Of a DNA stretch of 45,690 bases, positions 1 to 45,579 are shown in pieces (the stretch's first letter is position 1; each line of letters opens with the position of its first letter). The notes under the pieces are model-generated. The model did not search any database. It saw only the letters and a program-made list of their open reading frames with translations, and was not told the DNA's origin. A program made the translations under genes and the position numbers. The DNA is from a virus (Duplodnaviria; Caudoviricetes): positions 1-45,690 of IMG/VR virus record IMGVR_UViG_3300006893_000012. One strand, given 5' to 3'.

Positions 1-12
1 CACGCGCTTCAT
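1..12 (-). CDS. Possible start (MKRV...) of a host gene running off the left edge
   Basis: ATGAAGCGCGTG on the minus strand, weak RBS-like AAGAGA upstream, and a consensus-like promoter ~95 nt upstream. Only 4 codons are visible. Confidence 0.3.
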
Positions 13-108
13 ATCTCTTGCGATGCCAATTCGGGCTCGAGCAGTCCCCGTGAAATGGGGCCAAGCCGGGGTCTTAAGGCGACAGACCTTTCCTTCCCGG
101 TCTGCCGG

Positions 109-138
109 ATTATAAGTACCTCTACTGTGCAACGTCAA
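109..138 (-). promoter_or_regulatory. Sigma70-type promoter spanning attL, firing outward into host DNA
   Basis: Minus strand TTGACG (138-133), 18 nt spacer, TATAAT (114-109). Confidence 0.6.
112..123 (+). repeat. attL core ATAAGTACCTCT
   Basis: Identical 12-mer at 45568-45579; lies ~120 bp upstream of the integrase. Confidence 0.85.
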
Positions 139-180
139 CAAAAAGCGGCTTTTATACGGGCTTTTTCATGTTCCCGCATC

Positions 181-206
181 GGCTGGCTAACAAAGTTGGC
201 TAAAAA
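181..206 (+). promoter_or_regulatory. Putative integrase arm-type sites (tandem TGGCTAA at 184-190 and 197-203)
   Basis: GGCTGGCTAA-caaag-TTGGCTAAAAA; a near-identical pair occurs at 45429-45453. Confidence 0.7.
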
Positions 207-241
207 TTCAGTATTCGAGTCTTAGGCACTCAGGAGATCAG

Positions 242-1504
242 ATGACAGTACGAGTCTACACCCGCTTGAAAATCGACGGCGTTCGCCAACCGTACAAAAA
301 GGTCAACCTCAAAAAGCTCTACCACGACGACACCCTGTTTACGTTGGGGTGGGGCGGGAAGAAGCCGCTCACGCTGCCGCCCGGCACTTCCCTGCAAGCC
401 GCCCTGCTCGCAGCCAAGCAAAAGGAGCTGGAGCTGATGCAGGCACCGCCAGCGCAGTCCGCCGCTGCCGTGGCCGTGGCAGAAGCCCGCCTGAGCTTGG
501 CGCAGGCCCACAGCGCGTGGAGCGACCGGCTGCCCAAGAAAATGAAAAGGGACGGCAGCCTGATCAAAGAGTCCACCATCAAAACCTACCGCAACTCCAT
601 GCGGATCTTCTTGGCAGGTTGCGAGAAGAAATTCCTCGACGAGATCGACATGACCGACCTGGAAAATTTCCGCGACGAAATGTTGGACGACGACTACGCC
701 GACGGAGCGGTCGAGACTCGCCTCGATGCGGTCTGCATCTTCCTCCACTCCCACGACATTTTCGCGTATCCGAACCTTTCGATGAAGCACCCGCAGACGC
801 AAGCTCGCGTCCCGCTCTCACTTCACTACTATGCGAAGGACGCTCTCGTGACCTCGTTCAGCAGCGCCGAATACGACGCGCTGTTCGCCGCTTCCACTCC
901 CGAAGAGAAGATGCGCTGGGCCACGTTGCGCGGCGTCGGATATCGCAAGAACGAACAGGCGCACGCCGAGTTCACAGATTTCCGGGGGCGGGTGGTCTCG
1001 ATTGCCGCCAAGCCGCGCTATGACTGGAAGCCCAAATCAGACGCAGGCACACGGCTTGTGACAGTTCCAGGCTGGCTCACCGACATGGTAGAGCAATGGC
1101 ACCGTGAGCACCCCCACGACAAACTTCTTTTTCCGAACACAAACGGGCAGCCGGAGACCGGCTCGAAATTGCTTCACAGGCTGAAAGTCAGGGCTTTCCT
1201 CGCCGGTCTCAATTGCGGAACCTGCGAAGGGCGGCGTTATGACGGCAAGACCGTGAGCTGCCGTGAAGCGCCCGTTTGCAGCCATTGGAAATTGCACCGA
1301 TTCAGGGCGTCATTCGCTACCGACCACTACAAGAGTGGGAAAGTGACGGAGCTGCAAATCATGGCGTGGCTCGGACACAGCGATTTCAAAGTCACGCAAC
1401 GCTATCTCGCCCTCGCCAAAGCCACCGACCCCTCGCTCTGTGCCGCCGTGGATGCGACGTGGCATCCCGTTGACGTTGACACCCGCTTGGCGGCGGGCGC
1501 ATAA
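242..1504 (+). CDS. int: Tyrosine recombinase / phage integrase
   Basis: Catalytic motifs GYRKNE (R), KSDAGTR (K), LHRFRASFAT (HxxR), LGHSDFKVTQRY (H,Y); AGGAG RBS. Confidence 0.95.
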   Translation: MTVRVYTRLKIDGVRQPYKKVNLKKLYHDDTLFTLGWGGKKPLTLPPGTSLQAALLAAKQKELELMQAPPAQSAAAVAVAEARLSLAQAHSAWSDRLPKKMKRDGSLIKESTIKTYRNSMRIFLAGCEKKFLDEIDMTDLENFRDEMLDDDYADGAVETRLDAVCIFLHSHDIFAYPNLSMKHPQTQARVPLSLHYYAKDALVTSFSSAEYDALFAASTPEEKMRWATLRGVGYRKNEQAHAEFTDFRGRVVSIAAKPRYDWKPKSDAGTRLVTVPGWLTDMVEQWHREHPHDKLLFPNTNGQPETGSKLLHRLKVRAFLAGLNCGTCEGRRYDGKTVSCREAPVCSHWKLHRFRASFATDHYKSGKVTELQIMAWLGHSDFKVTQRYLALAKATDPSLCAAVDATWHPVDVDTRLAAGA

Positions 1505-1567
1505 TTTTGGGCAGGTGGATCGTGTAGTTGCTGCGGCGGTAGCCACGACAACCACCAACGCTCGTAC

Positions 1568-1643
1568 AGCGGCGATCCTTCCGAAAGTACTGCCAGTGGC
1601 ATGTTCCCTGACAGCTTTCGAAAGGGTCGCCGCTTTTTGTTTT
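1568..1643 (+). terminator. Long hairpin with U-tract after int
   Basis: AGCGGCGATCCTTCCGAAAG (1568-1587) pairs with CTTTCGAAAGGGTCGCCGCT (1615-1634), followed by TTTTGTTTT. Confidence 0.55.
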
Positions 1644-1652
1644 GGAGGATCT

Positions 1653-2024
1653 ATGGAACCGATTGAGCCTGACGAAGAAGCCTATCGTAACGTTGAACAC
1701 GATTACCCAAACGAACCCCCTGCTGAGAAATACCGGCTGGCGCAGGCTGACACGCTGATCCGGCTGAGTGGTGGGATGCGTCAGAAAGATGGCAGCTACG
1801 TGACAACCGAAATGAAAAAGAAATCGACCCTATATCGCACCGCAGTCGAGGAAGCGCAATTCCGGCTGGATCTTGTTCTGCAACTGATCGGCGCTGGTGA
1901 CGATTTGCCATCGCCGCTGTACGATGCGCTGATCTCCTATCGTGAGAAGTTGCAGGATTTTTTGCACGACCCCGCGAACACGCCCAACCCGTTTGACTCG
2001 TTGTTCCACAGGCACAGGCAATGA
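1653..2024 (+). CDS. Hypothetical protein (123 aa)
   Basis: GGAGG RBS before ATG 1653; ATGA overlap with the next gene. Confidence 0.7.
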   Translation: MEPIEPDEEAYRNVEHDYPNEPPAEKYRLAQADTLIRLSGGMRQKDGSYVTTEMKKKSTLYRTAVEEAQFRLDLVLQLIGAGDDLPSPLYDALISYREKLQDFLHDPANTPNPFDSLFHRHRQ

Positions 2025-2275
2025 AAAAGAAATCTGTTGCAGAAAAGTTTCGCGATGATTTAGCGGCTGCAATCAAGCGGTCCACAGCCACCGGCAGTGA
2101 TCTCGTGGTCCGCAACGTCCACGGTGCGATTGAAGCCGCCAGCATAAAAATGGGCGGCGATGAGGAACCAGGACTGTTCACGTTCAAAGACGGCAGCACG
2201 CTGGATGTACCAACACTCGAATTCACGCCGGCGCGGAAGAAAGCGAAAAAGAAGATAAGGAAGACAGCCCGCTGA
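2021..2275 (+). CDS. Hypothetical protein with basic C-terminus
   Basis: Translationally coupled ORF, 84 aa. Confidence 0.65.
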   Translation: MKKKSVAEKFRDDLAAAIKRSTATGSDLVVRNVHGAIEAASIKMGGDEEPGLFTFKDGSTLDVPTLEFTPARKKAKKKIRKTAR

Positions 2276-2356
2276 AGACACGAGGGCAACGGAGCGGAGC
2301 CCAGATCAAACAGGGAGCACCCTGTCGCTCTCGTGTTGAAATTTTCAGTATTGTAA

Positions 2357-2400
2357 CACCAGCCAACGAAGGCGAAAGCAACGCGCCGGTAGAGAAGCCC
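2357..2400 (+). ncRNA. Solitary TIGR-like guide unit (candidate stand-alone small RNA)
   Basis: caccAGCCA-acgaaggc-GAAAGCAACG-cgccggta-GAGAAGCCC has the same 9/8/10/8/9 geometry as the arrays; it is preceded by TCAGTATT and runs into a terminator. Confidence 0.65.
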
Positions 2401-2430
2401 CGATTCTCGGATCGGGGCTTTTAGTTTTTT
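2395..2430 (+). terminator. Rho-independent terminator
   Basis: AAGCCCCGAT-tctcgg-ATCGGGGCTT followed by TTAGTTTTTT. Confidence 0.85.
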
Positions 2431-2446
2431 GAATAAGGAGTCCGCC

Positions 2447-2806
2447 ATGTCTGAAGCAACTGATCCTTTTGAATTGTGGATGGAAAAACGCAAAGCAAAA
2501 CATGAACGGGAGGAAGCCGAAGAAGCGGCGAAGCCAAAGGTGATTCCCGACCACATCGTTCCAGCCAAGTTCAAGTTCAACCTCGGTGAATATGTCCGTG
2601 ACGCCATTACTGGAAAGAAGGGTTACATCGTCGTCAGGACCGAACACGTCTCAGGTTGCCTCCAATATTGGTTGACTGCTAGAGGCGACGGCGCACAAGT
2701 CACGCAGGACCGGATCATAGACGAGTCTCGCTTGGAGCGCACATCCACGCCGCCGTTTGAAATAGCGAAGGACGAAGCGCCCGGCTGCGTGGCGATCAAA
2801 CTTTAA
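2447..2806 (+). CDS. Hypothetical phage protein
   Basis: AAGGAG RBS before ATG 2447; SH3-like beta segment (FNLGEYVRDAITGKKGYIV). Confidence 0.7.
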   Translation: MSEATDPFELWMEKRKAKHEREEAEEAAKPKVIPDHIVPAKFKFNLGEYVRDAITGKKGYIVVRTEHVSGCLQYWLTARGDGAQVTQDRIIDESRLERTSTPPFEIAKDEAPGCVAIKL

Positions 2807-3825
2807 CGTGTCCTGAATTTCTTCCGGCCCTTTCGCCAACCAGGGCGGCCACCGTTCGGTGATATCTCCGGCAGGTTTAGCGGGGTGACAATCTCCCGCA
2901 AAGTTTTTATGTCTGGGCGATATTGTTTATTCTCTCTCAGGAACTTGCCGTAGTTGGTGGCCCCATTGGGCCGCACCGTCTCCAGCAAAATCGTGATCAG
3001 CGTAGAGCGGAACGTCCGCACACTGCTGACGGCGATCACATCTCCCGACAATATCCCTTCGACGCAACGCCGGGCCAAAATCGCTGGGTTCAGTTCTCCG
3101 GCCTGAATCAGTTGGCGCAAGAATGCGCTCATGCAAACTGAAACGTACCTCGACTCGGGCTCCTCTGGCCCACCTGAGTCCGGCTCTGGCCCCTCGCGCT
3201 CGATCATCTGCAGATCCTCGGCAACCAACGCGGGGTCCAGATTGTCGAGCGCGGAATTGTAATACCACACGCGCAGATCAATCGGAACGCGGTTAAGGTT
3301 CAGAAGATTCTGAATTTCGGTTTCCAACCAAACACGTTTCGTTTTCAAGGTGATCAGCACTTTCGCACGGCTGGCGAACATTTCTCCGACGATGCCGCAG
3401 AAATTCTTCAATCTCCCGGTGATTATCCGGACAAAACTTCCGGTTGCGATACCGGCGCTGCGGGATTCGAACGCTTGCTTGGAGCGCGCAATGGTCTCCT
3501 GCACATGACCGTCTTCGACGGCAATAATGTCAGAGCTGTGTCGCGTGTCGTTCGCCGTCAGTAGACCATTGACGCCGGTGACAGTCTTCAGTTTCAAAAG
3601 TGCCGGTCGGTCGAGGGAACGAAGGTAAATGAATGGGCTGAGCAATTCGAAAATGCCGAGATCCCGCCTACCCAACGGTATGAACATTTCAACGGGAGAT
3701 TCGCCGAACAGAGAGGGTATACGTTCGACGACACGGGCAAGGGTTGGTTCAGGGTGGTCGGATAATTCCAGCGCGTACCAATCACGACCGGCAAGCGACG
3801 ACACATCGTTAAGGTGAAGAAGCAT
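2803..3825 (-). CDS. NusG-family transcription antitermination paralog with C-terminal extension
   Basis: NGN-like N-terminus (DWYALEL...MFIP...PFIYLR...TGVNGLL) and KOW motif (GSFVRIITGRLKNFCGIV), plus ~160 extra aa. Confidence 0.8.
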   Translation of the reverse strand: MLLHLNDVSSLAGRDWYALELSDHPEPTLARVVERIPSLFGESPVEMFIPLGRRDLGIFELLSPFIYLRSLDRPALLKLKTVTGVNGLLTANDTRHSSDIIAVEDGHVQETIARSKQAFESRSAGIATGSFVRIITGRLKNFCGIVGEMFASRAKVLITLKTKRVWLETEIQNLLNLNRVPIDLRVWYYNSALDNLDPALVAEDLQMIEREGPEPDSGGPEEPESRYVSVCMSAFLRQLIQAGELNPAILARRCVEGILSGDVIAVSSVRTFRSTLITILLETVRPNGATNYGKFLRENKQYRPDIKTLREIVTPLNLPEISPNGGRPGWRKGRKKFRTR

Positions 3826-3994
3826 CTTCGACCAGTTTCTTAATCATCGCCTTGGACTCCGGGGATACCAGAGAGCGGTAGTAAGCCGACTCGAATTTCT
3901 CCAGCCTTTCCAGCCGTTCTAGTATCTCGATGTACGCAAGAGCGGGATTGTCGAGATAGCGGTTGATTGCTTGTTGCTTTTGTCCTTGTGTCAT
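3809..3994 (-). CDS. Hypothetical protein (61 aa)
   Basis: ATGA overlap with the upstream ORF; overlaps the start of the NusG-like gene. Confidence 0.55.
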   Translation of the reverse strand: MTQGQKQQAINRYLDNPALAYIEILERLERLEKFESAYYRSLVSPESKAMIKKLVEDASSP

Positions 3995-4179
3995 TCGTCC
4001 ATCTCCCGAGTTTCCTCGATTCTGCGTACAACCTTCCACGGATCAAAGAACCTGTTCAGCCTTTCAGCGAACTCTTCCCAACTAACAATGTTGGCTTTCA
4101 TCGCCTTCAGCTCGTCGGCGGTGATAGTTACATTGTCGGGGCAGAAACCGAGCATGGACTTTAATACTGAGAAGTGCAC
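3991..4179 (-). CDS. Hypothetical protein (62 aa, MHFSVLKS...)
   Basis: AAAGGA RBS then GTG at 4179; the longer 4455 start lacks an RBS. Confidence 0.55.
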   Translation of the reverse strand: MHFSVLKSMLGFCPDNVTITADELKAMKANIVSWEEFAERLNRFFDPWKVVRRIEETREMDE

Positions 4180-4247
4180 TTGTCCTTTCGTAATATGCGA
4201 TGCACCAATGTGTCTGGAGATGTTTAGGAGGGAAGGCGTAAACAGGA

Positions 4248-4291
4248 AATAAGCCAGTGCATCGGAACGCAACAGGAGGTTAGAGCAGCCA
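4248..4291 (+). ncRNA. Solitary TIGR-like guide unit in the divergent control region
   Basis: aataAGCCA-gtgcatcg-GAACGCAACA-ggaggtta-GAGCAGCCA; loop identical to 9021-9030 and final edge identical to the array consensus. Confidence 0.75.
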
Positions 4292-4642
4292 TTTGGGCGC
4301 ACGACGACTATTCTTTGGGTGTGGGGTGTGGACGGAGTCCACGAGAAAATACACCACAAGGTCGCTATCGCGTTGGCTGGACTGGTTCGCCGGGTGTGCT
4401 GTGAGTGTCTTGCAGGGTATCCTAATTGTTCAAACTTACTGCGCACCCTCACCACTCACAAATTGTTGCTGCGAAGCCCCGCTATTTTTCTGACCAAGGT
4501 CGTCACGTCGGGGACGTTGCCTGGATTTACGGGTGTCCAACTCGCCTCCGGTTCTACTTGATGTGGGGTCCGATGCACTCTGTTTTCTAGAGTTTTAGTT
4601 CCACAATCGCGGCGTATGACCGGCTGCCATGTCATAAGACCG

Positions 4643-4720
4643 ATACTGACTTTCGGTCTCTAACACGGGGTTTGGAAGTAAAAAAAAAAGAGTTTTGCGG
4701 TTCTGCGTGAAAGTCAGTAT
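4643..4720. promoter_or_regulatory. Outward-facing 12-bp inverted repeat (GAAAGTCAGTAT), putative divergent promoters or operators
   Basis: ATACTGACTTTC at 4643-4654 and GAAAGTCAGTAT at 4709-4720, with an A10 run (4680-4689) between them; lies between divergent operons. Confidence 0.5.
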
Positions 4721-4881
4721 GTAATAAAGTACGCAACTGGATTGGGGTATGGGGGCGGCACCCGCCGCTCCCTTCGCTAAGCACAGTCACCGTACAGCGA
4801 ACCCGATTCCTCAATGTTGCTGGCAAATTTCCGTTTGCAAGCCGTGGGAAAACCTCGTTCGCAGAAAGGTCGCTCCCTTTT

Positions 4882-5634
4882 ATGGACGATCAGAATGTCA
4901 ACCAGCAAGACCCAAACCGTATGGCGGACGTGGCTTTCGAGCTGCCCGCTGACAACGGCAAGGCGACAAAACAGGCTGTCGCTTCCGCCGCCGAATTCCC
5001 CAAGCCCGTGCTCGTCCCGAAGAAAACAATGTTCGAAGGTGCCAGCCGCCGCAGTGCGGAACTGGCTAAGAAGGGTTCCACTTCCAGCAGCCGTACCGGA
5101 AAGGCGAAGCAGGTTTCGTTCGAATTCGGTAAGCCGCCGAAGAACGTCTACTGCAAGACCCACCCGGACCCTGCCTACCATGCTTTTAACCTGCCGGTGT
5201 ATTACAACGAAGCCGCACGGAAGTTCTCGTATGTCCCTCCGGAGCTGTACGAATCAGGAACGCTGCCGTCGCGGTTCCACGATGCCATCAAGTTGATGGA
5301 TGTTCACACGACCGGGTTGGCGGACGGCACCTTTATTTTGTGGTTCGTCTTCGTCTCCGGCAGCCCGTGGCGCAAGTCGGCAGAGAAGGTGATCCAGGCG
5401 GCTGCGCTGCAGTTCGGCATCGTCGGCTCGATTCCCGTCCGGCAAACCTACACATGGGAACCGGCGACCGATCCCATTCCGGAACCGAAGTGGGCTTCTT
5501 TGCCCGAGTTCGAAAGCCTGCTGCTCGGCGCTTTTGACTCCGTGGTGAACGTCGTCGAAGACAAAGTGGTGACCGACTTTATGTCCGGTGGCGTGACCGC
5601 AGCGGAAGACCGTGAGGGCGGCGAAGGTGAGTAG
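4882..5634 (+). CDS. Replication-associated protein, possibly single-stranded DNA-binding
   Basis: Directly upstream of and overlapping polA; aromatic beta-rich core; acidic C-terminal tail (AAEDREGGEGE). Function inferred. Confidence 0.55.
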   Translation: MDDQNVNQQDPNRMADVAFELPADNGKATKQAVASAAEFPKPVLVPKKTMFEGASRRSAELAKKGSTSSSRTGKAKQVSFEFGKPPKNVYCKTHPDPAYHAFNLPVYYNEAARKFSYVPPELYESGTLPSRFHDAIKLMDVHTTGLADGTFILWFVFVSGSPWRKSAEKVIQAAALQFGIVGSIPVRQTYTWEPATDPIPEPKWASLPEFESLLLGAFDSVVNVVEDKVVTDFMSGGVTAAEDREGGEGE

Positions 5635-7519
5635 CCTGCCTGCGGAGCGGTTCCCTTACGTGTATATCCCTGACACCGAGTTCCAGGTGGTGGACGGGGA
5701 GCAGCAGAAGCCCGTGTCGCTGATCGCGCACGGTTACAACAGGGCGCGGAGGGTCGAGATGTTCTTCGACTCTCCGCAGCAGTGCCCGTTTCCGGATCTC
5801 GATAACACCCTGTTCGTCGGATACAACCTGCCCGCCGAGTACCAAACGATGCTGGCATTGGGTTGGCCGCTGCCCGTGCACTCCATCGATCTCTATACCG
5901 AGTACCTGAACGAGATCAATGGAGTATGGCGGGGTAAAGAATCCATGAAGGACATTGGCACCGGCCTGCAGGACGCAGTGCGTGAGTATGGCGGGAACCT
6001 GATGGAGTTTTGGACTACCGACAAAGAAGCCGAGCGCGACTACATTATTGCGAACGGCACGGTCCCTCCCGCAGGCGTCAGCCTCGAAGACCACCGCAAG
6101 CGCATCCTTCGTTACAACGAAGAGGACGTGGCGGCCACCGTCTGGCTGGCGAAGCGGATGTTGCCGGAGATCGACATCGAACAGGCATTGTGGCGCGGCA
6201 AATACTCACAGGCCACGGCCTTCTTCCAGCATAACGGCGTGCCCATAAACCGGGAGAGGTTCCGCATTATCGAGAGGGAAGCCCGGCACCTGAAATTGGC
6301 AATCGCCAAGAAGATCGAGGACACCCACAACTACGGCGTCTACGTGGTCGAGGGTCGCGAGGATCTGAAGAACAAACCGCACGCGGTTTTCAAGAACGAC
6401 AAGTTCGCGGCGATGCTGGAATCGAAAGGCATAACGGTCGGGAAACGGGGCGCATGGAAAGTCACGCCCACGGGCCTGCCGATTCTCGAAGACGATTACT
6501 TCGATGGGATGTGCAATGCCTATCCGGAGCTGCAACCGTTGCGCCAGTGCCGCAAGTCGATCAACTCTCTCGGTCGATTCAGCACGCAACTCGGAGCTGA
6601 CGGTTTCAACCGTGCGCCGATGTGGATGTTCGGCACCGTAACCGGGAGAAATAACCCCAAGGCCAAGGCGTTCCTGTTGTCCCGACCGCATTGGGTGCGC
6701 AACCTGTTGACGCCTCGGGAAGGCATGGCGCTGATCGTTTGCGATATCACCGGCGCAGAGGATTGGCTGGCAGCGGGTTTCTCCGGCGATCCAGAATTAA
6801 TGAGGATCTACGCCAGTGGGCTCGATTCGTATCTCGAATTTGCGATTGCGTGCGGGGCAGTTCCACCTGGAACGTTGCGTGACAAAAAGAACCCCGAACT
6901 GGAAGCGATCCGTGCCATGCACAAGACAGCGAAGCTGGCGATTGCTTACGGCGTTTGGGCGCACACGCTGTCGCAATATCTTGGCGTCCCGGAGTGGCAG
7001 GCGTCCGCAATCATCAACGCGCACAAAGCGGCTTACGGCGTTTACTGGCAGTGGACGGAAGATCGTGCAAAGTTGGCCGAAGATCAGGGGTTTGTAATCA
7101 CCGACTATGGATGGCGTCAGTCCATTGAACACATGTCCGATAACTCCATCCTGAACTTCCCTCAACAAGCCGGTTGCGCCGAGTTACTGCACATGGCTTG
7201 CAACCTATTGGTGGAGTGCGGTTGGGGTTACGCGATGTCGGCTCCACACCATGACGCTCTCTACATGCACGTGGAAATAGAACGCGCCGAGGAATGTAGA
7301 CAGGCCGTGGAGGATGCTTTCATCGAAGCGGGTAACCGAATCATGGAGCTGCCTGAGTTTCCATTGAAGGTGCACAGCGAGATTGTGCGGTATCCAGAAC
7401 ATTACAGCGATCCGGACGGACGGGAAATCTGGGACATTGTTTCAGAGTATTTCCAGTGGGACAACTTCGAAATGAAGGAGGAAGTTGCAGATGAGCGAGT
7501 ACTCGCGAACAACGGCTAA
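5627..7519 (+). CDS. polA: Family A DNA polymerase (3'-5' exonuclease + polymerase, no 5' nuclease)
   Basis: ExoI DTEF, ExoIII YNEED, TGR, motif A CDITGAE, motif B KTAKLAIAYG, NFPQQ, motif C HHDAL; GTG start at 5627 preferred. Confidence 0.92.
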   Translation: MSSLPAERFPYVYIPDTEFQVVDGEQQKPVSLIAHGYNRARRVEMFFDSPQQCPFPDLDNTLFVGYNLPAEYQTMLALGWPLPVHSIDLYTEYLNEINGVWRGKESMKDIGTGLQDAVREYGGNLMEFWTTDKEAERDYIIANGTVPPAGVSLEDHRKRILRYNEEDVAATVWLAKRMLPEIDIEQALWRGKYSQATAFFQHNGVPINRERFRIIEREARHLKLAIAKKIEDTHNYGVYVVEGREDLKNKPHAVFKNDKFAAMLESKGITVGKRGAWKVTPTGLPILEDDYFDGMCNAYPELQPLRQCRKSINSLGRFSTQLGADGFNRAPMWMFGTVTGRNNPKAKAFLLSRPHWVRNLLTPREGMALIVCDITGAEDWLAAGFSGDPELMRIYASGLDSYLEFAIACGAVPPGTLRDKKNPELEAIRAMHKTAKLAIAYGVWAHTLSQYLGVPEWQASAIINAHKAAYGVYWQWTEDRAKLAEDQGFVITDYGWRQSIEHMSDNSILNFPQQAGCAELLHMACNLLVECGWGYAMSAPHHDALYMHVEIERAEECRQAVEDAFIEAGNRIMELPEFPLKVHSEIVRYPEHYSDPDGREIWDIVSEYFQWDNFEMKEEVADERVLANNG

Positions 7520-7712
7520 GCATGCAACGGTCTGCCCACGGTGCAAGGGCTATATCTCAGTGGGCACAACAATCGTATTGGGTGAAGGTTCGAAGAAATG
7601 GACGCATGCCGTGTGTCCAGGAGTTGACGTGCTTATTAAGCCGCGCACTGAGGAAGAGATGAACGCAAGGGTGACTGTGTTTAAGTTCAACGACAAAGGA
7701 GAACTGATCTGA
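7491..7712 (+). CDS. Small zinc-finger-like protein
   Basis: CPRC...WTHAVC; AAGGAGG RBS. Confidence 0.65.
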   Translation: MSEYSRTTAKHATVCPRCKGYISVGTTIVLGEGSKKWTHAVCPGVDVLIKPRTEEEMNARVTVFKFNDKGELI

Positions 7713-7851
7713 TGGGTGACGGGGAGATGGATCCTCTTTGCCGGTACGAGTGTTCAGCTTCAAACAAAGAATATTACATCGGTAATATTGACAACCGCAT
7801 TTTCGTTGTGAACGGAATTCACGGAGCGTAAAAACAATTGGAGCAGCCATT

Positions 7852-8019
7852 ATGAAACGGATAACAATTAGCGACGAACACACAGGCAACGAGTTCGATG
7901 ACGACTTGTTGGAACTTATGCAACAACCGAACACGCCGCCTCAACCGATTAAGAAAATCAAATTAACCGCCGAGCAGGTGAAGGAACTGATCAAAAGCGG
8001 CACCGTAAGCGGTGTGTGA
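7852..8019 (+). CDS. Small hypothetical protein (55 aa, MKRITISDEHTG...), below the ORF track cutoff
   Basis: GGAG RBS, ATG 7852, TGA 8017-8019; read by hand. Confidence 0.5.
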   Translation: MKRITISDEHTGNEFDDDLLELMQQPNTPPQPIKKIKLTAEQVKELIKSGTVSGV

Positions 8020-8211
8020 GTTTACCTGAGCAAGTGAACGGGAGCGTGGCTCGGCGTCCGCACCATACTTGCGGATTGTTTTTCACGCCCCGTAAGCGGT
8101 CTTGTCCGTACCGTCCATAGCAATGCGACACGCAACTCCGGCGCATGGAGCACGGGTGGGCTGTTGTTCTCTCCAATTGACAGTGCCACCTAAATTTACT
8201 CAGGAGTGGTT

Positions 8212-8574
8212 ATGGCTAACACACAAATTCCCGCACAGTCTGAAGTGCAGCCCGTGCCGGGACAGCAAGCATTAGGTTTCCGGATCAAGTCGGTCTCCGT
8301 CTCGTTGGATCTCAGCTCGAAAGTGTACGGCACGGGTCCGGCAAGTTACGCCTCGTTAAACTCATGGGTTGACGGCGCGACCTTAGAGCAGCTTCCGGAT
8401 GTGATCGACGCAGGTATGGATCTTTTCGTGGCTGCGTGGCGGATGCTGATCAGTGCGCAGTTGGCGACAAAGTTAACCAACGAACCGAGTGAAGAATATA
8501 AAGCGCTGTTGGCGAAAGTGGATAAGCGACTCAAGCGAGTTAAGGAAATGTTACGAGAACAACCTTCTTCCTAG
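8212..8574 (+). CDS. Hypothetical protein immediately upstream of the array
   Basis: CAGGAG RBS; 120 aa. Confidence 0.7.
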   Translation: MANTQIPAQSEVQPVPGQQALGFRIKSVSVSLDLSSKVYGTGPASYASLNSWVDGATLEQLPDVIDAGMDLFVAAWRMLISAQLATKLTNEPSEEYKALLAKVDKRLKRVKEMLREQPSS

Positions 8575-8583
8575 TAAACCACA

Positions 8584-9047
8584 AAGCAGCCACGCAGCAT
8601 GAACGCAGCATTGAGCAAGAGCAGCCATTCATTGAGAATGCCGCCGCGAGTGAGCAGCCGAATAGGGACGAACGCAGCAGGCCCGGTGAGCAACCATTGA
8701 AGCAGAGAGCATAATTCATCGTGAGTAGCCAGCATAATCGACCGCAACGTCAGCGAAGAGCATCCATGTGGGATGACCGCGCCATTCATCTTGAAAAGTC
8801 ACTATGCCCGATAGCAACATGCATCCGGAGCAGCCAAAGCAACGTGAAAGTACCAGAACACTAGAGCAGCCACCCGGTCAGAAAGCGTCATTCAGCAGGA
8901 GCAGCCACGAATCCAGAACGTATTATCAAAGGAGAGCAGCCATCCAGGGCGAAAGCCGCAATCAACAAGAGCAGCCATACTGCGGGAGTGCGACAGTCAT
9001 CTAGAGCAACCAATGCAGGAGAACGCAACAGTCAGTTGGAGTAACCA
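8584..9047 (+). repeat. TIGR-like dual-repeat guide array 1 (13 units)
   Basis: Edge repeat ~GAGCAGCCA starts at 8584, 8619, 8652, 8688, 8723, 8758, 8793, 8828, 8864, 8899, 8934, 8969, 9004, 9039. A loop repeat ~GAnnGCrnCA lies midway. Spacers are unique and mostly 8 nt. Confidence 0.9.
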
Positions 9048-9068
9048 ACTTTATACAGGAGTCAAAAG

Positions 9069-9962
9069 ATGTCATCCACCACAACTGTGGTAGAAACCGT
9101 AGCCAATCCGTCATTCGAAGCCATTCATAAATTAACGAGGGATCTGAAAAAGGCAGCCGTCACTCTCACTCGCACCGAAGCGAGGTTTCTCGTTGACAAC
9201 TACTACACCATGCAAGATAACCGTATTCGCACTGGAGGTCAGATCCGCGAAATGGAATCGATCAAGGAACCTCACGAGGTTTTGAAATGGTTCAACACGC
9301 AGGATGAACTTTTGGAGAATGAAGTCAAGAGGGCGCTGGATTCCTATTCCAACGGGTTTGTCCTCGGGCGTTGGGCTCGCTCCCTGTATGGAATTGGTCC
9401 CGTTATCGCTGCGGGACTCCTGGCGCATCTTGATATCGAAAAGGCCAAGGGGGCGGGCGCGTTCTGGCGCTTCGCTGGTCTTGATCCGACGAGCGAATGG
9501 AAAAAAGGTGAGAAGAGGCCTTGGAACGCGGCGCTGAAAGTCTTGTGCTGGAAGGCTGGCGAGAGTTTCGTCAAGACTTCCGGTCGTGAAGGTGATATTT
9601 ACGGGCATTTGTTGATCGCTAAGAAGGATCTCCTCACTTCGCAGAACGAGGCGTTAATGTTCAAGAATGCTGCAGCAGAAGTTTTGGTGCGGGTCCCGAA
9701 ACATGCACAGGCTTCAATCTACAAGACGGGGAAGTTGCCGCCCGGCCACATTTTCAGTCGGGCAAAGCGTTACGCTGTGAAATTATTTCTGGCACATTAT
9801 TTTGAAGTTTCGTGGTGGCTGAAATACAACTGCGCGCCGCCAATGCCCTTCATCTTCACAGATCAGGCTAAGGCCCTCGGTCTCGATCACAGCCATTGGC
9901 TCCACGCTCCGAATTTTCCGATGGCGGAAAATCTGCCTGAGGGTTTACCCAAACTTCCATAG
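9069..9962 (+). CDS. TasA-like Nop-domain / IS110 C-terminal-like RNA-binding protein lacking a nuclease domain
   Basis: Coiled coil then SLYGIGPVIAAGLLA...FWRFAGLDP...WNAALK...HIFSRAKRYAVKLFLAH, the IS110/IS116 Tnp-C / Nop fold pattern. No N-terminal DEDD RuvC domain and no HNH. Flanked by arrays. Confidence 0.85.
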   Translation: MSSTTTVVETVANPSFEAIHKLTRDLKKAAVTLTRTEARFLVDNYYTMQDNRIRTGGQIREMESIKEPHEVLKWFNTQDELLENEVKRALDSYSNGFVLGRWARSLYGIGPVIAAGLLAHLDIEKAKGAGAFWRFAGLDPTSEWKKGEKRPWNAALKVLCWKAGESFVKTSGREGDIYGHLLIAKKDLLTSQNEALMFKNAAAEVLVRVPKHAQASIYKTGKLPPGHIFSRAKRYAVKLFLAHYFEVSWWLKYNCAPPMPFIFTDQAKALGLDHSHWLHAPNFPMAENLPEGLPKLP

Positions 9963-9973
9963 CCCCTAACGTA

Positions 9974-10319
9974 GATCGCGCCAATGAGAGAGAGCAGCCA
10001 TGACCATAGAAAGCGCCATGAAGTACGAGCAGCCATCACGGAAGAATGCCGCATGGGACTGGAGCCGAGCCAGAGTATTAGAACGCACCAATTCGATGGA
10101 GCACCCAGATCCAGCGAGAGCGCCATAGAGAATGAGGATTCAGGTTGTTCGAATGTGCCAACGTCAATGAAAATCCAATTCTCATGAAAGCAGCACAACG
10201 TCGGAGAAATCAAAGCATTGGATTGCAGCAGGGTGCGCGAGTTAGCCATGGTGAAAGATCGCGCCGCAGTGTAAGAGCAAGCCAACTGCTCTGAAAGTCC
10301 CAATTACTTGGAGTGGTCA
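9974..10319 (+). repeat. TIGR-like dual-repeat guide array 2 (9 full units plus a leading partial unit)
   Basis: Edges at 9992, 10027, 10062, 10099, 10134, 10169, 10204, 10239, 10275, 10311; loops such as GAAAGCGCCA, GAACGCACCA, GAGAGCGCCA; all spacers 8 nt. Confidence 0.88.
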
Positions 10320-10326
10320 GCGATAC

Positions 10327-10355
10327 AGGGGGTGGCTTCGGCTGCCCCCTTTTTT
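10327..10355 (+). terminator. Rho-independent terminator closing array 2
   Basis: AGGGGGTGGC-TTCG-GCTGCCCCCT followed by TTTTT. Confidence 0.9.
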
Positions 10356-10385
10356 CTGTCTACCGGGCGCTTGAGTAGGTGCCCT

Positions 10386-10598
10386 ATGCAATGTCAGCAA
10401 GTTATTAGCGTTACGCACGCCCCCGGCGAAACCGAGGCCGACGATTCCGAGGTAGTTACAACCTGTTCCGAAGAGGTCTTCGAAATCGTTGATGGAAACT
10501 CTTTGTGTGTAAAACATGCGCAGCATTCGAAGAGGACGAAGACCCATCACGAGACTTACGATCCCGGCTGGACTGAAGAGTATGAAATTGATGGCTAA
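10386..10598 (+). CDS. Small Cys/His-containing hypothetical protein
   Basis: ATG 10386 after the terminator; C...C...LCVKH. Confidence 0.5.
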   Translation: MQCQQVISVTHAPGETEADDSEVVTTCSEEVFEIVDGNSLCVKHAQHSKRTKTHHETYDPGWTEEYEIDG

Positions 10599-10600
10599 TC

Positions 10601-11695
10601 TTGTCGCCTCGAATCCTGTTTCTTCTCAAGTACCGCGATTGCCCTCCAACGCAGGGGTTCGTCCCAACTAAAAACGGACTCTCCAGCGGCCTGCTGAACT
10701 CTGCGCGCTTCGTGGTAGACATGTTGGGCTCTGCACACTTTGCCGTGAAGTTAGTTCAAGTAATTGACAACAACTCCATCGACCGTGAAGTCCATCTCTA
10801 CAAACCCACGCATGTAATCATCGAAGCGCTCTGGTGCCAGCCTGATAAATTCACAATCCTCCAGAAACTTCATCCCACTGTCAAATGGATCGTTCGCGGC
10901 CACTCGGACATTCCCTTCTTAAGTCAGGAAGGCGTTGCCCTTGAGTGGATCACTGGCTATATGAAGTACGAGAACGTCAGCTTTGCTTGCAATTCTGTGA
11001 GATCGTACCGTGACATTCGAGCGCTTGTGATGTCGCAAGCTCCTTTGCTGACGCCTACAGCTCTTGATCGCAAGATTCTGTTTCTTCCCAATTACTATCC
11101 CGATCACAGACATCAGCTCCGGCGCAAACAGGTCGATGGCTACCTCGACATTGCTTGCTTTGGTGCGATACGCCCGCTCAAGAATCAACTGATCCAGGCT
11201 GTGGCCGCGACGGAATACGCCAGACGATCTAACCGCAGGCTGCGCTTTCATGTCAACGCATCGCGCACTGAACAACGTGGCGATAATGTTCTGAAGAATC
11301 TGCGCGCTCTGTTCGCATCAACCGGCAATGAGTTAGTCGAACATCCTTGGATGCCTCATCGCGAGTTCCTTCACATTTTGTCCGGCATGGATTGTGCCCT
11401 TCAGGTTTCGTTCACTGAGACTTTTAATATCGTGGCGGCAGATGCGATCAGCGTAGGCTTGCCCATCGTTGCAAGCGATCAGGTGAGCTGGCTTAGCCCG
11501 CTCTCAATGGCTCAGCCGACCGATTCGAACGACATCGTGGATAAACTCGTGTTGGTGAACCGTCCGTTCTGTCGTGGAATAATCAACGGCGCGAACCTTC
11601 GCGGATTAAAGCAGTACTGCGACAACAGTAGAACGGCGTGGCTGGACTACTTCAACGTGGGACGTTCAACAGTCTCATCTGTACAAGGATCATGA
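10601..11695 (+). CDS. GT-B fold glycosyltransferase (GT4-like)
   Basis: CFGAIRPLKNQ and SFTETFNIVAADAISVGLPIVAS resemble the GT4 nucleotide-sugar binding signature. Confidence 0.8.
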   Translation: MSPRILFLLKYRDCPPTQGFVPTKNGLSSGLLNSARFVVDMLGSAHFAVKLVQVIDNNSIDREVHLYKPTHVIIEALWCQPDKFTILQKLHPTVKWIVRGHSDIPFLSQEGVALEWITGYMKYENVSFACNSVRSYRDIRALVMSQAPLLTPTALDRKILFLPNYYPDHRHQLRRKQVDGYLDIACFGAIRPLKNQLIQAVAATEYARRSNRRLRFHVNASRTEQRGDNVLKNLRALFASTGNELVEHPWMPHREFLHILSGMDCALQVSFTETFNIVAADAISVGLPIVASDQVSWLSPLSMAQPTDSNDIVDKLVLVNRPFCRGIINGANLRGLKQYCDNSRTAWLDYFNVGRSTVSSVQGS

Positions 11696-11784
11696 ACATC
11701 GATATACGTCGATATTGACTCCCGAGCGCAGTACTGACGGCGATTGTCACAGCCAATTAACGGCGCGCCCCGACTTCCCACTTC

Positions 11785-11900
11785 TTAGCCAGATAGTTAG
11801 CCAGCGCTGCAACTCCATTGGTGTCAACAGTGATTTGAAGGGCTGCTTCTATTGTTCTCAATCGCTCCACTTCGTAAGTAGCTGACACCAATTGGCGTTA
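11785..11900 (-). promoter_or_regulatory. Internal inverted copy of the arm-type motif pair plus a long imperfect inverted repeat
   Basis: TTAGCCA at 11785-11791 and 11797-11803; ATTGGTGTCA (11817-11826) / TGACACCAAT (11883-11892). Confidence 0.5.
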
Positions 11901-12079
11901 GCGTGTAAGTCTCCCACCTCAGCCAAATCAAGCAGTTATTGCCCCCACTTGTAGGGGAGTGCCTTTGGGTTTCGGAATTTCTCGACCCCATACCACCGCT
12001 TTTCGATTTTCGTTTGGCGCGGGGGCAGGCGTATCTAAGCCAGCCATTTTTGAGGTTTCTCACTCAGGAGGGTAATCCA

Positions 12080-22912: not shown

Positions 22913-23707
22913 ATGGCTGTTATCGACGCACTTGGCTATCCACTTGTAAGTGACGTAATGATTTTGGCACGTGCTCATGTAAATGACACGCAGCCCGGCC
23001 TCACGGACAGTCCTGGTGAAGGTCAAATTCTCACGAATGATCCGTTGATCTCCCCGTTTACACTACCCTTTCTGAACTCTGCCATCCGCACGCTGCACAG
23101 GGATTTGGAACTCAGCGGCAGCCCTTCAATCATTCGAGACAATGTAATTGTGACCGGACTTACTCCGGTGAACGGTCCTATCGGGCTCGGATTGCAAGAT
23201 CCCGATATTCAAACGAGCCTATCTTATGTTGGATACGATGATGGTACTACTGTCAACACTCTTATTGTTCTTCCTGCTGATGTCCTTTCGGTCGAAGCCG
23301 TAAGCGAGCGCATGTCCGGCACCACGGATTTGTTTATGCCGATGCGCGAAGTGCAGGCCGGAATTTCCTCCAGGTTGCAATCGAATACATTCGGGGTTTG
23401 GGAAACACGCGGAGATGCGCTCTACTTCCCCGGCGCTCTGACTACTCGTGACATCCGACTGCGCTACTACGCCAGCCTCCCGCTGGTCGATCCCAATTCC
23501 GATTTCACTCAAACCTCCGTCACGATTTTGGACAGCACCGACGCATTGGCCTACATGATCGCCGCCCGTTACTCGGCGGCCCGTGGCGGATTGGGTGCCG
23601 GTACGTTGGAACAGAAAGCCGCCACCGAAATCATGAAGATCAAGGCGCGTGAAATCCGGCGTGCGCAGTCTGTGACGTATCACCGCCATCCATTTGGAAG
23701 GGTTTAA
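22913..23707 (+). CDS. Putative head-tail adaptor / tail tubular protein A
   Basis: Position, and helix-beta-helix layout (FLNSAIRTL...LRYYASLP...[11 protein letters not shown]). Confidence 0.55.
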
Positions 23708-25269
23708 TGCCACTTTTCCGGCGAGATTTCGTTCTGCAAGATCGGCAAGGACTCGCGCTCGGCGGCGCAGTTGTGTACGTCTGCACGTCGGGCGCAGTGT
23801 TCGGGATGTTCCCGACCGTTCTTCCGGCTCCGCTGGCGACAATCTACCAGGATCTTGCCGGTACGATTCCGCTTGAGTCCATCACTCTCGACGGGCAGGG
23901 AAATGGTTTCTATTACGCGCCCATCGGCTCCTACGTCGAGGTTTACACCTACCACAACAAGGTCGTAAAAGTTTTGCCGGACCAGAATATCGGCAGCGTC
24001 ACGCCCGGCGTGGTGGAAGTCGATCTGACAATGACGGCTGGCATGACGATCCCTGCAGGGCAAGTGTGCAGCGTGCACACCGATGGCAAAGCCTACGTCG
24101 CAAGTGCCGACAATCCTCTCGATCAAAACCACGTCATAGGAATCGCCATCAGCAGTGGCGTGAACGGGTTTCTCGTCAACGTCCGCACGAGCAGCGAAGT
24201 GGATAACATCGGGTGGACTCTCACGCCCGGAGCGCAGTATTTCCTCGGACTCAATGGCGCGCTGAGCACCAACCCTTCGTTGGGTTTGTTCACGCAGCCG
24301 ATGGGCACGGGGATTCTGCCCACTCAGCTCCTCCTCAACATTCAGCAAATCGGAGCGCAGGGTTTAACTGGTGCGACCGGGGCAGCCGGATCAACCGGGC
24401 CTATCGGACCAGCCGGGTCAACCGGGCCTACCGGGGCAACTGGCGCGACAGGAGCAGTCGGGACAACCGGGACAACCGGGCCTACCGGAGCCACCGGATC
24501 AACTGGCGCGACCGGGGCAGGCGGGGCAGCCGGGATAGCCGGAGCAGCCGGGCCAACCGGCCCTACCGGAGCCACCGGCGCGGCGGGTCAAGGATTCGCG
24601 TGGCGTGGTACCTGGAACAGCAGCACAGCATATGTCGCCTACGACGTTGTCTATGACACGGTAGCTGGCGTCTCGTATGTTTGCATCCTGGGCAACATGA
24701 ACCATGAAGCACCGAACGCGACCTACTGGGAGCAGGTTGTCGCTACAGGAGGAGGTGGCGGCGGGGGCGTGTCTGCTGGTTCAAATCTGATACCTGCCTC
24801 ACCACGCTCAAGCACCAATTTTGGATATGCTGGATACTCCATGATAATGCGCATCCGGCAAGGTCTGTTGCAGTGTTTCCCCCCAAGCTGGCAATTTTCG
24901 CTTTCTCTGGCAGCGAGTGCCAGCTATGTTGTTACAAAGGGAGTAGTTTACCGCACCAACATTGACAGCAACGTAGTAATCGATTCTACGACGGTCACTT
25001 GGAGTAGTTCTGGCACACCGACTCTGGTAACTGGAGAAACGTTTTGTGACCCAATCAGTCTACCGATTGATACCAGCCATGACTACTGGGTCGTGGTTTG
25101 TTTCAACACGACGACTGGAAATCTCAACACGGGTAGCAGCACGTGGGTCAGTGCTTTCTTCAACGGCGACTGTGGTTATACCCACAGCGACCAAACGGGA
25201 TTGAGCACGGGGGGCACCATTCCCACTGTATCCGTAGAATCAGAGTTCTATCGTGTCATCTCAACGTAA
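23707..25269 (+). CDS. Collagen-like fiber protein
   Basis: Gly-X-Y run (~24352-24594), [17 protein letters not shown] carbohydrate-binding-like motif, Gly linker, C-terminal beta domain. Confidence 0.8.
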
Positions 25270-45428: not shown

Positions 45429-45453
45429 GGCTGGCTAAATTCTTGGCTAAAAA
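45429..45453 (+). promoter_or_regulatory. Putative integrase arm-type sites (TGGCTAA at 45432-45438 and 45444-45450)
   Basis: Matches 181-206. Confidence 0.7.
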
Positions 45454-45567: not shown

Positions 45568-45579
45568 ATAAGTACCTCT
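45568..45579 (+). repeat. attR core ATAAGTACCTCT
   Basis: Identical to 112-123. Confidence 0.85.

Follow-up and report, generated by a model that had tools for sequence, protein, structure and literature searches.

A lone TIGR unit merged with a terminator, 6.7 kb from tasA in a Terriglobia prophage: a possible one-unit guide gene

We analyzed a viral contig of 45,690 bp (the window, i.e., the whole stretch of DNA under study). The contig is a prophage. A metagenome contig (L048) was found to carry the same DNA together with 4,592 bp on the left, in which SMC, purC, cvpA and a Fis-like gene are located. The purC product of this flank was 95% identical to that of a Candidatus Acidiferrales bacterium (L049) and 75–88% identical to those of many Acidobacteriaceae and Sulfotelmatobacter genomes, indicating that the host is a member of Terriglobia. 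A 12-bp direct repeat, ATAAGTACCTCT, is present at 112–123 and 45568–45579 and is likely the attachment core, and paired GGCTGGCTAA...TTGGCTAAAAA repeats inside both ends (181–206 and 45429–45453) are likely the arm sites of the integrase. Because the core repeat lies near both ends, the prophage appears complete in the window, with host DNA outside the cores. The left part of the prophage contains the integrase gene (242–1504), two small genes, the lone unit described below, a 119-aa phage gene and leftward genes; these are followed by an 840-nt control region, a family A DNA polymerase, the TIGR-Tas module, a glycosyltransferase and terminase. Within a 520-aa ORF (23707–25269), a tandem repeat with a 9-nt period (ACCGGGCCA, approximately 22 copies, 24376–24578) has the appearance that a collagen-like Gly-X-Y tract would have.

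The TIGR-Tas module comprises a Tas gene with one array on either side, and its features are listed together with those around the lone unit (Table 1). The arrays have a period of 35 nt, an edge repeat GAGCAGCCA, a loop repeat GAnnGCnnCA and spacers of 8 nt each. Box C is represented by CCA or CA at the repeat ends and box D by GA at the repeat starts. The 297-aa protein matched, in its Nop region, a solved TasR-like chain (9mty, E = 2.3e-11) and TasH (21kl, E = 2.2e-10); it also matched phrog_4285 (5.7e-36), and Pfam gave only a weak match to Transposase_20. The alignment with 9mty begins at residue 48 of the query and residue 124 of the chain; since it starts at residue 48, what precedes leaves no space for a nuclease domain at the N terminus, and the protein is of the TasA type, which has a Nop domain with a coiled coil and lacks HNH and RuvC domains. 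A C-terminal PY...HxH motif with Y-x6-H spacing was found in 18 of the 19 aligned homologues. In its place, this TasA (residues ~255–285) has PF, a 6-residue insertion and HSH. According to the text of the SpTasH paper, the processing dyad of SpTasH is Y289/H296 (PMC13421893), and PY...HxH is possibly its counterpart. With the tyrosine lost, self-processing of the arrays by this TasA may be impaired; if the equivalence of the dyads holds, guide maturation may depend on host RNases in this system.

Table 1. Positions of the lone TIGR units, their surroundings and the TIGR-Tas module in the window.
Feature	Position	Strand	Remarks
Sigma-70-like promoter candidate, TTGACA-18-CATAAT	1476–1505	+	11 of 12 matches; best in 1–12000; putative function
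123-aa ORF	1654–2024	+	GGAGGA ribosome-binding site; no family match
84-aa ORF, last gene before the lone unit	2021–2275	+	start overlaps the preceding stop (ATGA)
Strong RNA hairpin just 3' of the stop codon, then U-rich stretch	2278–2337	+	fold; kept in the centroid structure
TCAGTATT motif	2345–2352	+	4 nt before the lone unit
Lone TIGR unit	2357–2400	+	CACCAGCCA / ACGAAGGC / GAAAGCAACG / CGCCGGTA / GAGAAGCCC (edge / spacer A / loop / spacer B / edge)
5' edge repeat of the lone unit	2357–2365	+	CACCAGCCA vs GAGCAGCCA; first half degenerate; box C CCA intact
Spacer A of the lone unit	2366–2373	+	ACGAAGGC; unique
Loop repeat of the lone unit	2374–2383	+	GAAAGCAACG; 9.9 bits
Spacer B of the lone unit	2384–2391	+	CGCCGGTA; unique
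3' edge repeat of the lone unit	2392–2400	+	GAGAAGCCC; ends in C instead of A; GA(G) of box D kept
Intrinsic terminator	2393–2430	+	stem 2393–2422, 13 pairs, 4-nt loop, then AGTTTTTT
119-aa phage gene, phrog_16275	2447–2806	+	AAGGAG ribosome-binding site directly 3' of the terminator T-run
Second lone TIGR unit	4248–4291	+	AATAAGCCA / GTGCATCG / GAACGCAACA / GGAGGTTA / GAGCAGCCA; 30.9 bits
TIGR array 1, 13 units	8584–9047	+	directly upstream of tasA
TasA, 297 aa, Nop-domain, without nuclease domain	9069–9962	+	structure-chain and PHROG matches
TIGR array 2, 10 units, more degenerate edges	9957–10319	+	overlap of the first edge with the stop codon of tas
Intrinsic terminator ending array 2	10327–10350	+	

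The lone unit at 2357–2400 lies on the array strand in a 171-nt intergenic gap, 6.2 kb from the first array edge and 6.7 kb from the start of tas. It is a genuine TIGR-type unit of the phage's own repeat family. The offsets of 17 and 35 nt are identical in this unit and in the arrays, and the boxes used at this locus flank both spacers (CCA at 2363–2365, GA at 2374–2375, C9 of the loop at 2382 and GA at 2392–2393). The loop keeps G1, A2 and G5, which are invariant, as well as the near-invariant C9. Loop position 10 is G, which occurs in 2 of the 23 array loops, whereas A occupies this position in 20. Both edges match the consensus at 7 of 9 positions. The clear mismatches are at positions 1 and 3 of the 5' edge, position 9 of the 3' edge and position 10 of the loop. 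The unit ends as arrays do, i.e., with a truncated 5' edge and with a truncated 3' edge followed by a rho-independent terminator; positions 2–9 of the 3' edge form the 5' arm of this terminator.

The unit is single. In register, the positions 35 and 70 nt to either side showed no trace of further units, with negative profile scores (−7 to −24 bits for the neighbours), whereas arrays mostly consist of 5–15 units in tandem. Therefore, we filed 2357–2400 as a one-unit variant and not as a typical array. Compared with any array unit, its spacers agree at no more than 8 of 16 bases, which is within the spread among the array units themselves. Given the unique spacers and the lack of decayed neighbour units, 2357–2400 is not a copied fragment of an array. 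These results bear out much of an earlier sequence-only reading, which had proposed a stand-alone guide gene at this place: the unit shares the 35-nt register of both TIGR arrays, its last edge is built into the stem of a strong terminator, the recurring motif TCAGTATT is present just 5' of it, it is single, and its distance from the Tas locus, given as about 6 kb, agrees with the measured values. The claim of one lone guide thus stood for 2357–2400, although it had overlooked a stronger lone unit at 4248–4291.

To score the units, we built a profile of position weight matrices, for which 22 array edges and 23 loops were used, and scanned both strands of the window in the fixed array geometry; two edges that contain indels and a first edge that is truncated were left out of the edge profile. 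The unit at 2357–2400 scored 21.1 bits, and regular-register array units scored 28–43 bits on the same profile. Outside the arrays, only two high sites were found in the window, 4248 (30.9 bits) and 2357, both on the array strand; the next-best sites reached 4.2 bits on the plus strand and 1.0 bits on the minus strand. With independent bases, 0.0011 sites of at least 21.1 bits and 3.7e-6 sites of at least 30.9 bits would be expected per window. The sequence-only reading had proposed a chance estimate with a profile made from the array units; among 1000 first-order Markov surrogates of the window, two reached 21.1 bits and none reached 30.9 bits. As a further control, we scanned host-relative DNA (80 loci, 1,868,898 positions), in which one site reached at least 21.1 bits and the next best scored 13.7. 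This single site (L115 1319–1363, minus strand, 23.8 bits) lies among small unannotated ORFs, has no array or Tas gene nearby and differs in its flanking genes; therefore, we counted it as chance and not as a real unit. The empirical chance rate derived from this one event is approximately 0.05 per window.

Published tigRNAs begin and end midway through an edge repeat, as described in the text of PMC12045711; therefore, we scored separately the part of each unit that would be kept in the mature RNA (edge positions 4–9, the loop and positions 1–4 of the next edge). A mid-edge cut site was assumed, and any cut between edge positions 3 and 9 gave the same picture of kept and discarded parts. The kept part of 2357–2400 scored 24.0 bits, compared with 16.1–29.7 bits for 16 regular array units and 8.7 bits for the next-best non-array site on this reduced profile. 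In contrast, its discarded edge halves scored −2.9 bits, whereas 14 of the 16 regular units scored 7.5–13.7; the low values among the regular units were those of the first unit of array 2 (0.3) and unit 10064 (2.1). Three of the four clear mismatches fall in the discarded halves, for which a rough estimate of the probability is ~0.07 (at least 3 of 4 in 8 of 28 columns). This distribution of the mismatches is suggestive, not decisive.

The unit at 4248–4291 is a better match to the profile than 2357–2400; its loop and 3' edge are perfect, its 5' edge reads AATAAGCCA, and its spacers are unique. It lies within the divergent control region of 840 nt that separates the leftward genes from the early rightward operon, and no terminator was found 3' of it. 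This second lone unit indicates that dispersed single units exist in this genome.

The surroundings of 2357–2400 bear on how it may be transcribed. Neither the longer frame 1440–2024 that includes the 123-aa ORF nor the 84-aa ORF had a match in Pfam or PHROG. The promoter-like site at 1476–1505 lies 850 nt upstream of the unit on the same strand, with two translationally coupled genes between them; from this arrangement, 2357–2400 may be the tail of an operon of ~900 nt starting at 1476–1505. The hairpin at 2278–2337 and its U-rich stretch are a possible partial terminator within it. By consensus scan, no sigma-70-like site was found adjoining the unit. The unit had been read as separately transcribed; this claim was not supported, and co-transcription from 1476–1505 fits equally well or better. 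Downstream, the 119-aa gene seems to need read-through, because its ribosome-binding site adjoins the T-run of the terminator and no promoter-like site lies between them. The only RNA family suggested in 2200–4950, BSnc120, was rejected as a weak match (21 bits, with the gathering score at 114; E = 0.18), and no Rfam family reached its gathering score in the whole window. No run recorded as RNA was found for 2000–10400; the single matching run contains the stretch as DNA and may be its source.

The motif TCAGTATT occurs at three sites in the window (208–215 on the plus strand, 2345–2352 on the plus strand and 4163–4170 on the minus strand), compared with 0.59 expected, and at least three sites were obtained in 2 of 100 shuffles. 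Each site lies at the 5' side of a transcription unit, which is the integrase gene for the first, the lone unit for the second and the leftward operon for the third. The motif may be a promoter element or an operator; the promoter role is only a lead, and no −35-like element common to the three sites was seen. The third site adjoins a perfect 10-bp palindrome, AAGTGCACTT. We also considered TCAGTATT as the remnant of a decayed preceding unit and rejected this, since the in-register loop position scored −13.9 bits.

According to the text of Faure et al. 2025 (PMC12045711), cuts by Tas leave 8-nt 3' overhangs; therefore, we deduced that a target consists, on one strand, of spacer A and then spacer B in reverse complement, which gives 5'-ACGAAGGCTACCGGCG-3' as the predicted target of the 2357–2400 guide. 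The prophage contains no such site with up to three mismatches, and none with up to two when gaps of 0–3 nt between the halves were allowed; within 2.5 kb of the unit, there is no site with up to four. No evidence was found for the dedicated regulatory target or the decoy role suggested by the sequence-only reading. For all 25 guides of the window, no self-target with at most one mismatch was present in the prophage. Matches with two or three mismatches were as frequent as in control arrangements (13, 14, 9 and 13), and gaps of 0–3 nt made no difference. The attachment site was rejected as a target, as only 7 of the 8 bases of spacer A adjoin the right core. For the 4248 guide, the closest partial match (4563–4578, minus strand) lies 270 nt downstream in the same control region; we rejected it as a target because spacer A matches at 8 of 8 positions but the other half at 4 of 8, which is too weak.

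The search for the spacers had also been proposed for host genomes, and it yielded matches only at the level of chance. The 4.6-kb host flank contains one site for the 2357–2400 guide, with three mismatches. In five genomes of host relatives, four one-mismatch matches were found in unrelated contexts, compared with five for a control pattern; no Tas gene was found in these five genomes. Viral contigs contained 17 exact matches of the 2357–2400 guide in 15 unrelated contexts, and exact 16-mers of the two lone guides numbered 17 and 6, mostly in unrelated contexts. The matches in both sets appear to be due to chance, which would give such numbers in a viral collection of that size. Most TIGR spacers are likewise without an identified target in the text of the TIGR papers.

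We compared the unit with known TIGR systems as they are described in the text of the respective papers. With the dual-repeat TIGR/TasA type (FpTIGR of Flavonifractor plautii; PMC12045711), it shares a spacer preceded by CCA and followed by a box D dinucleotide, truncation of both the first and the last edge, with an intrinsic terminator after the latter, and a nuclease-free Nop-domain Tas. Natural arrays described in that paper also begin with a truncated first edge and end with a truncated last edge, then an intrinsic terminator. It differs from this type in having one unit instead of the usual 5–15, in lying in the 3' UTR of an unrelated small operon, and in its period of 35 nt with 8+8-nt spacers; its Tas gene is in the same genome but 6.7 kb away, whereas tas is adjacent in that type. 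Box D is GA here and UG in TaTIGR (PMC12045711). According to Faure et al. 2025 (PMC12045711), engineered arrays undergo processing and loading when they have one to three units, and one unit suffices for processing and Tas loading in E. coli; these minimal arrays have full edges and were co-expressed with tas, whereas 2357–2400 is natural, has two partly degenerate edges and is known from sequence. Stem-loop tigRNAs arise from "flexible genomic positions" (Xu et al. 2026), and in this respect guides are likewise not confined to one array beside tas. Those units, however, belong to the stem-loop type and are located within tas or on its upstream or downstream side, whereas 2357–2400 is of the dual-repeat type and lies kilobases away. 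In the text of the TIGR papers, we found no description of lone dual-repeat units far from tas.

One-spacer guides that lie away from their effector locus and act in trans are familiar from CRISPR systems as mini-CRISPR arrays, solitary repeat units and CreA-type mini-arrays. Such mini-arrays sit on phages and plasmids, sometimes with degenerate repeats. The analogy with mini-CRISPR arrays and solitary repeats drawn by the sequence-only reading bears on a possible mode of action and not on membership: those elements consist of CRISPR repeats with Cas effectors, have no sequence or fold in common with the present unit and resemble it in function only.

To assess how common lone units are, we examined 47 viral loci with TasA relatives (34–60% identical) using locus-specific profiles. 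An array was detectable in 42 of them; in four others no periodic anchor was present, and the remaining one contained too few units. In the 42 array-bearing loci, no lone unit was found, and every significant unit belonged to a cluster of at least four. The same locus-profile procedure recovered both lone units of the window. In five whole records of related viruses, there was likewise no lone unit, and all 109 pattern matches fell in arrays beside tas. Therefore, lone units are not a conserved habit of the clade. In two of the viral loci (L039 571–1920 and L046 19501–20963), the profiles found arrays 8–9 kb from the Tas gene, which may represent a second TIGR system or a distant array.

Weighing these observations, we consider a working one-unit guide gene acting in trans on TasA to be the most likely reading of 2357–2400, with about even confidence in it. 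A trans guide for the distant TasA is the natural reading because the last edge is fused to a strong terminator; against it counts that the terminator stem takes up most of the 3' edge. We propose that 2357–2400 is a single-unit TIGR array that likely yields a guide of ~35 nt, bound in trans by TasA. Its transcript would be either the tail of the two-gene operon starting at 1476–1505 or the product of its own promoter near TCAGTATT. A TasA dimer would contact box C CCA at 2363–2365, the loop repeat and box D GA at 2374–2375 and 2392–2393. The 5' end would be trimmed within the edge repeat, and the 3' end would be set by trimming or by the terminator. The target is probably located in a competing mobile element or a host strain, since it is absent from the prophage. 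Guide-dependent repression of transcription is described for TasA proteins in the text of a preprint (Xu et al. 2026, 10.64898/2026.09.09.750476).

The strongest alternative is that the unit is an evolutionary leftover, moved or stranded by recombination, perhaps together with an array-end terminator, and no longer a working guide. The two mismatches in each edge and the deviating loop position 10 are what such a relic would show, as are the burial of the 3' edge in the terminator stem, the lack of a target, and the absence of lone units from the 42 related loci and the five whole records. Moreover, we found no relative of the phage for a comparison of conservation: blastn of 1500–5000 against a phage collection gave no close relative, nor did searches of viral contigs with the 119-aa and 340-aa flanking proteins as queries, and a metagenome scan returned only the same DNA with its host flank (L048). 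However, three of the four clear mismatches fall in edge halves that are lost at processing, and the mature part scores in the middle of the range of true units. In addition, neighbouring register positions hold no decayed units, which fits poorly with the slow decay of a longer array. We therefore regard the loss of guide function as unlikely, though a serious contender.

The fusion of the 3' edge with the terminator also suggests an RNA acting in cis: TasA would bind or cut the unit in the 3' UTR of the operon, and guide production would be secondary or absent. Two outcomes are conceivable: the upstream message would lose its protective terminator hairpin, or the terminator would be kept from forming and transcription would continue into the 119-aa gene. 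Consistent with this, the terminator takes its 5' arm from the 3' edge, the downstream ribosome-binding site directly follows the T-run with no promoter-like site in between, and the second lone unit likewise lies inside a control region; furthermore, Tas proteins cut within edge repeats, as stated in the text of PMC13421893 and Xu et al. 2026. Nevertheless, the argument is purely one of position. Since natural arrays also end with a truncated edge and a terminator, the fusion needs no special explanation, and the TIGR literature, as far as its text goes, reports no such role. Accordingly, we consider a cis-acting RNA improbable as the main function of the unit.

In an extension of this idea, both lone units would be RNA switches operated by TasA, with a guide unit doubling as a protein-dependent cis-regulator; this is a speculative proposal that we think quite improbable. 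If it were true, TasA that binds or cuts the nascent 2357–2400 would block or detach the terminator, so that transcription would run on into the 119-aa gene and the operon beside the integrase gene would change in stability. The unit at 4248 would act likewise in the leader of the early operon.

Finally, a chance likeness to an array unit, arising in an ordinary 3' untranslated region that has a terminator, is highly improbable: although an unrelated site of 23.8 bits exists in 1.87 million positions of Terriglobia DNA, which raises the chance rate to ~0.05 per window from 0.001, only two of the 1000 surrogates reached the score of 2357–2400, which moreover lies on the array strand in one of few intergenic gaps, directly abuts a terminator as array ends do, has mismatches that avoid its functional half, and shares its genome with a second lone unit of 30.9 bits.

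TIGR-Tas systems were described in 2025, and the questions about their natural biology concern the targets of the guides, the timing of guide production and the origin of arrays. Only if expression and loading are shown would the gain be more than modest. Published tools search for arrays around tas; if lone units are skipped, the guides per system would be undercounted. A one-unit array would also be the simplest natural substrate for studying the birth of units and the minimal signals for processing. In this prophage, one lone unit follows a small operon that neighbours the integrase gene, and the other is in a divergent control region. If single guide genes are located in other transcription units of a temperate phage, a part of its guide set would be under separate control.
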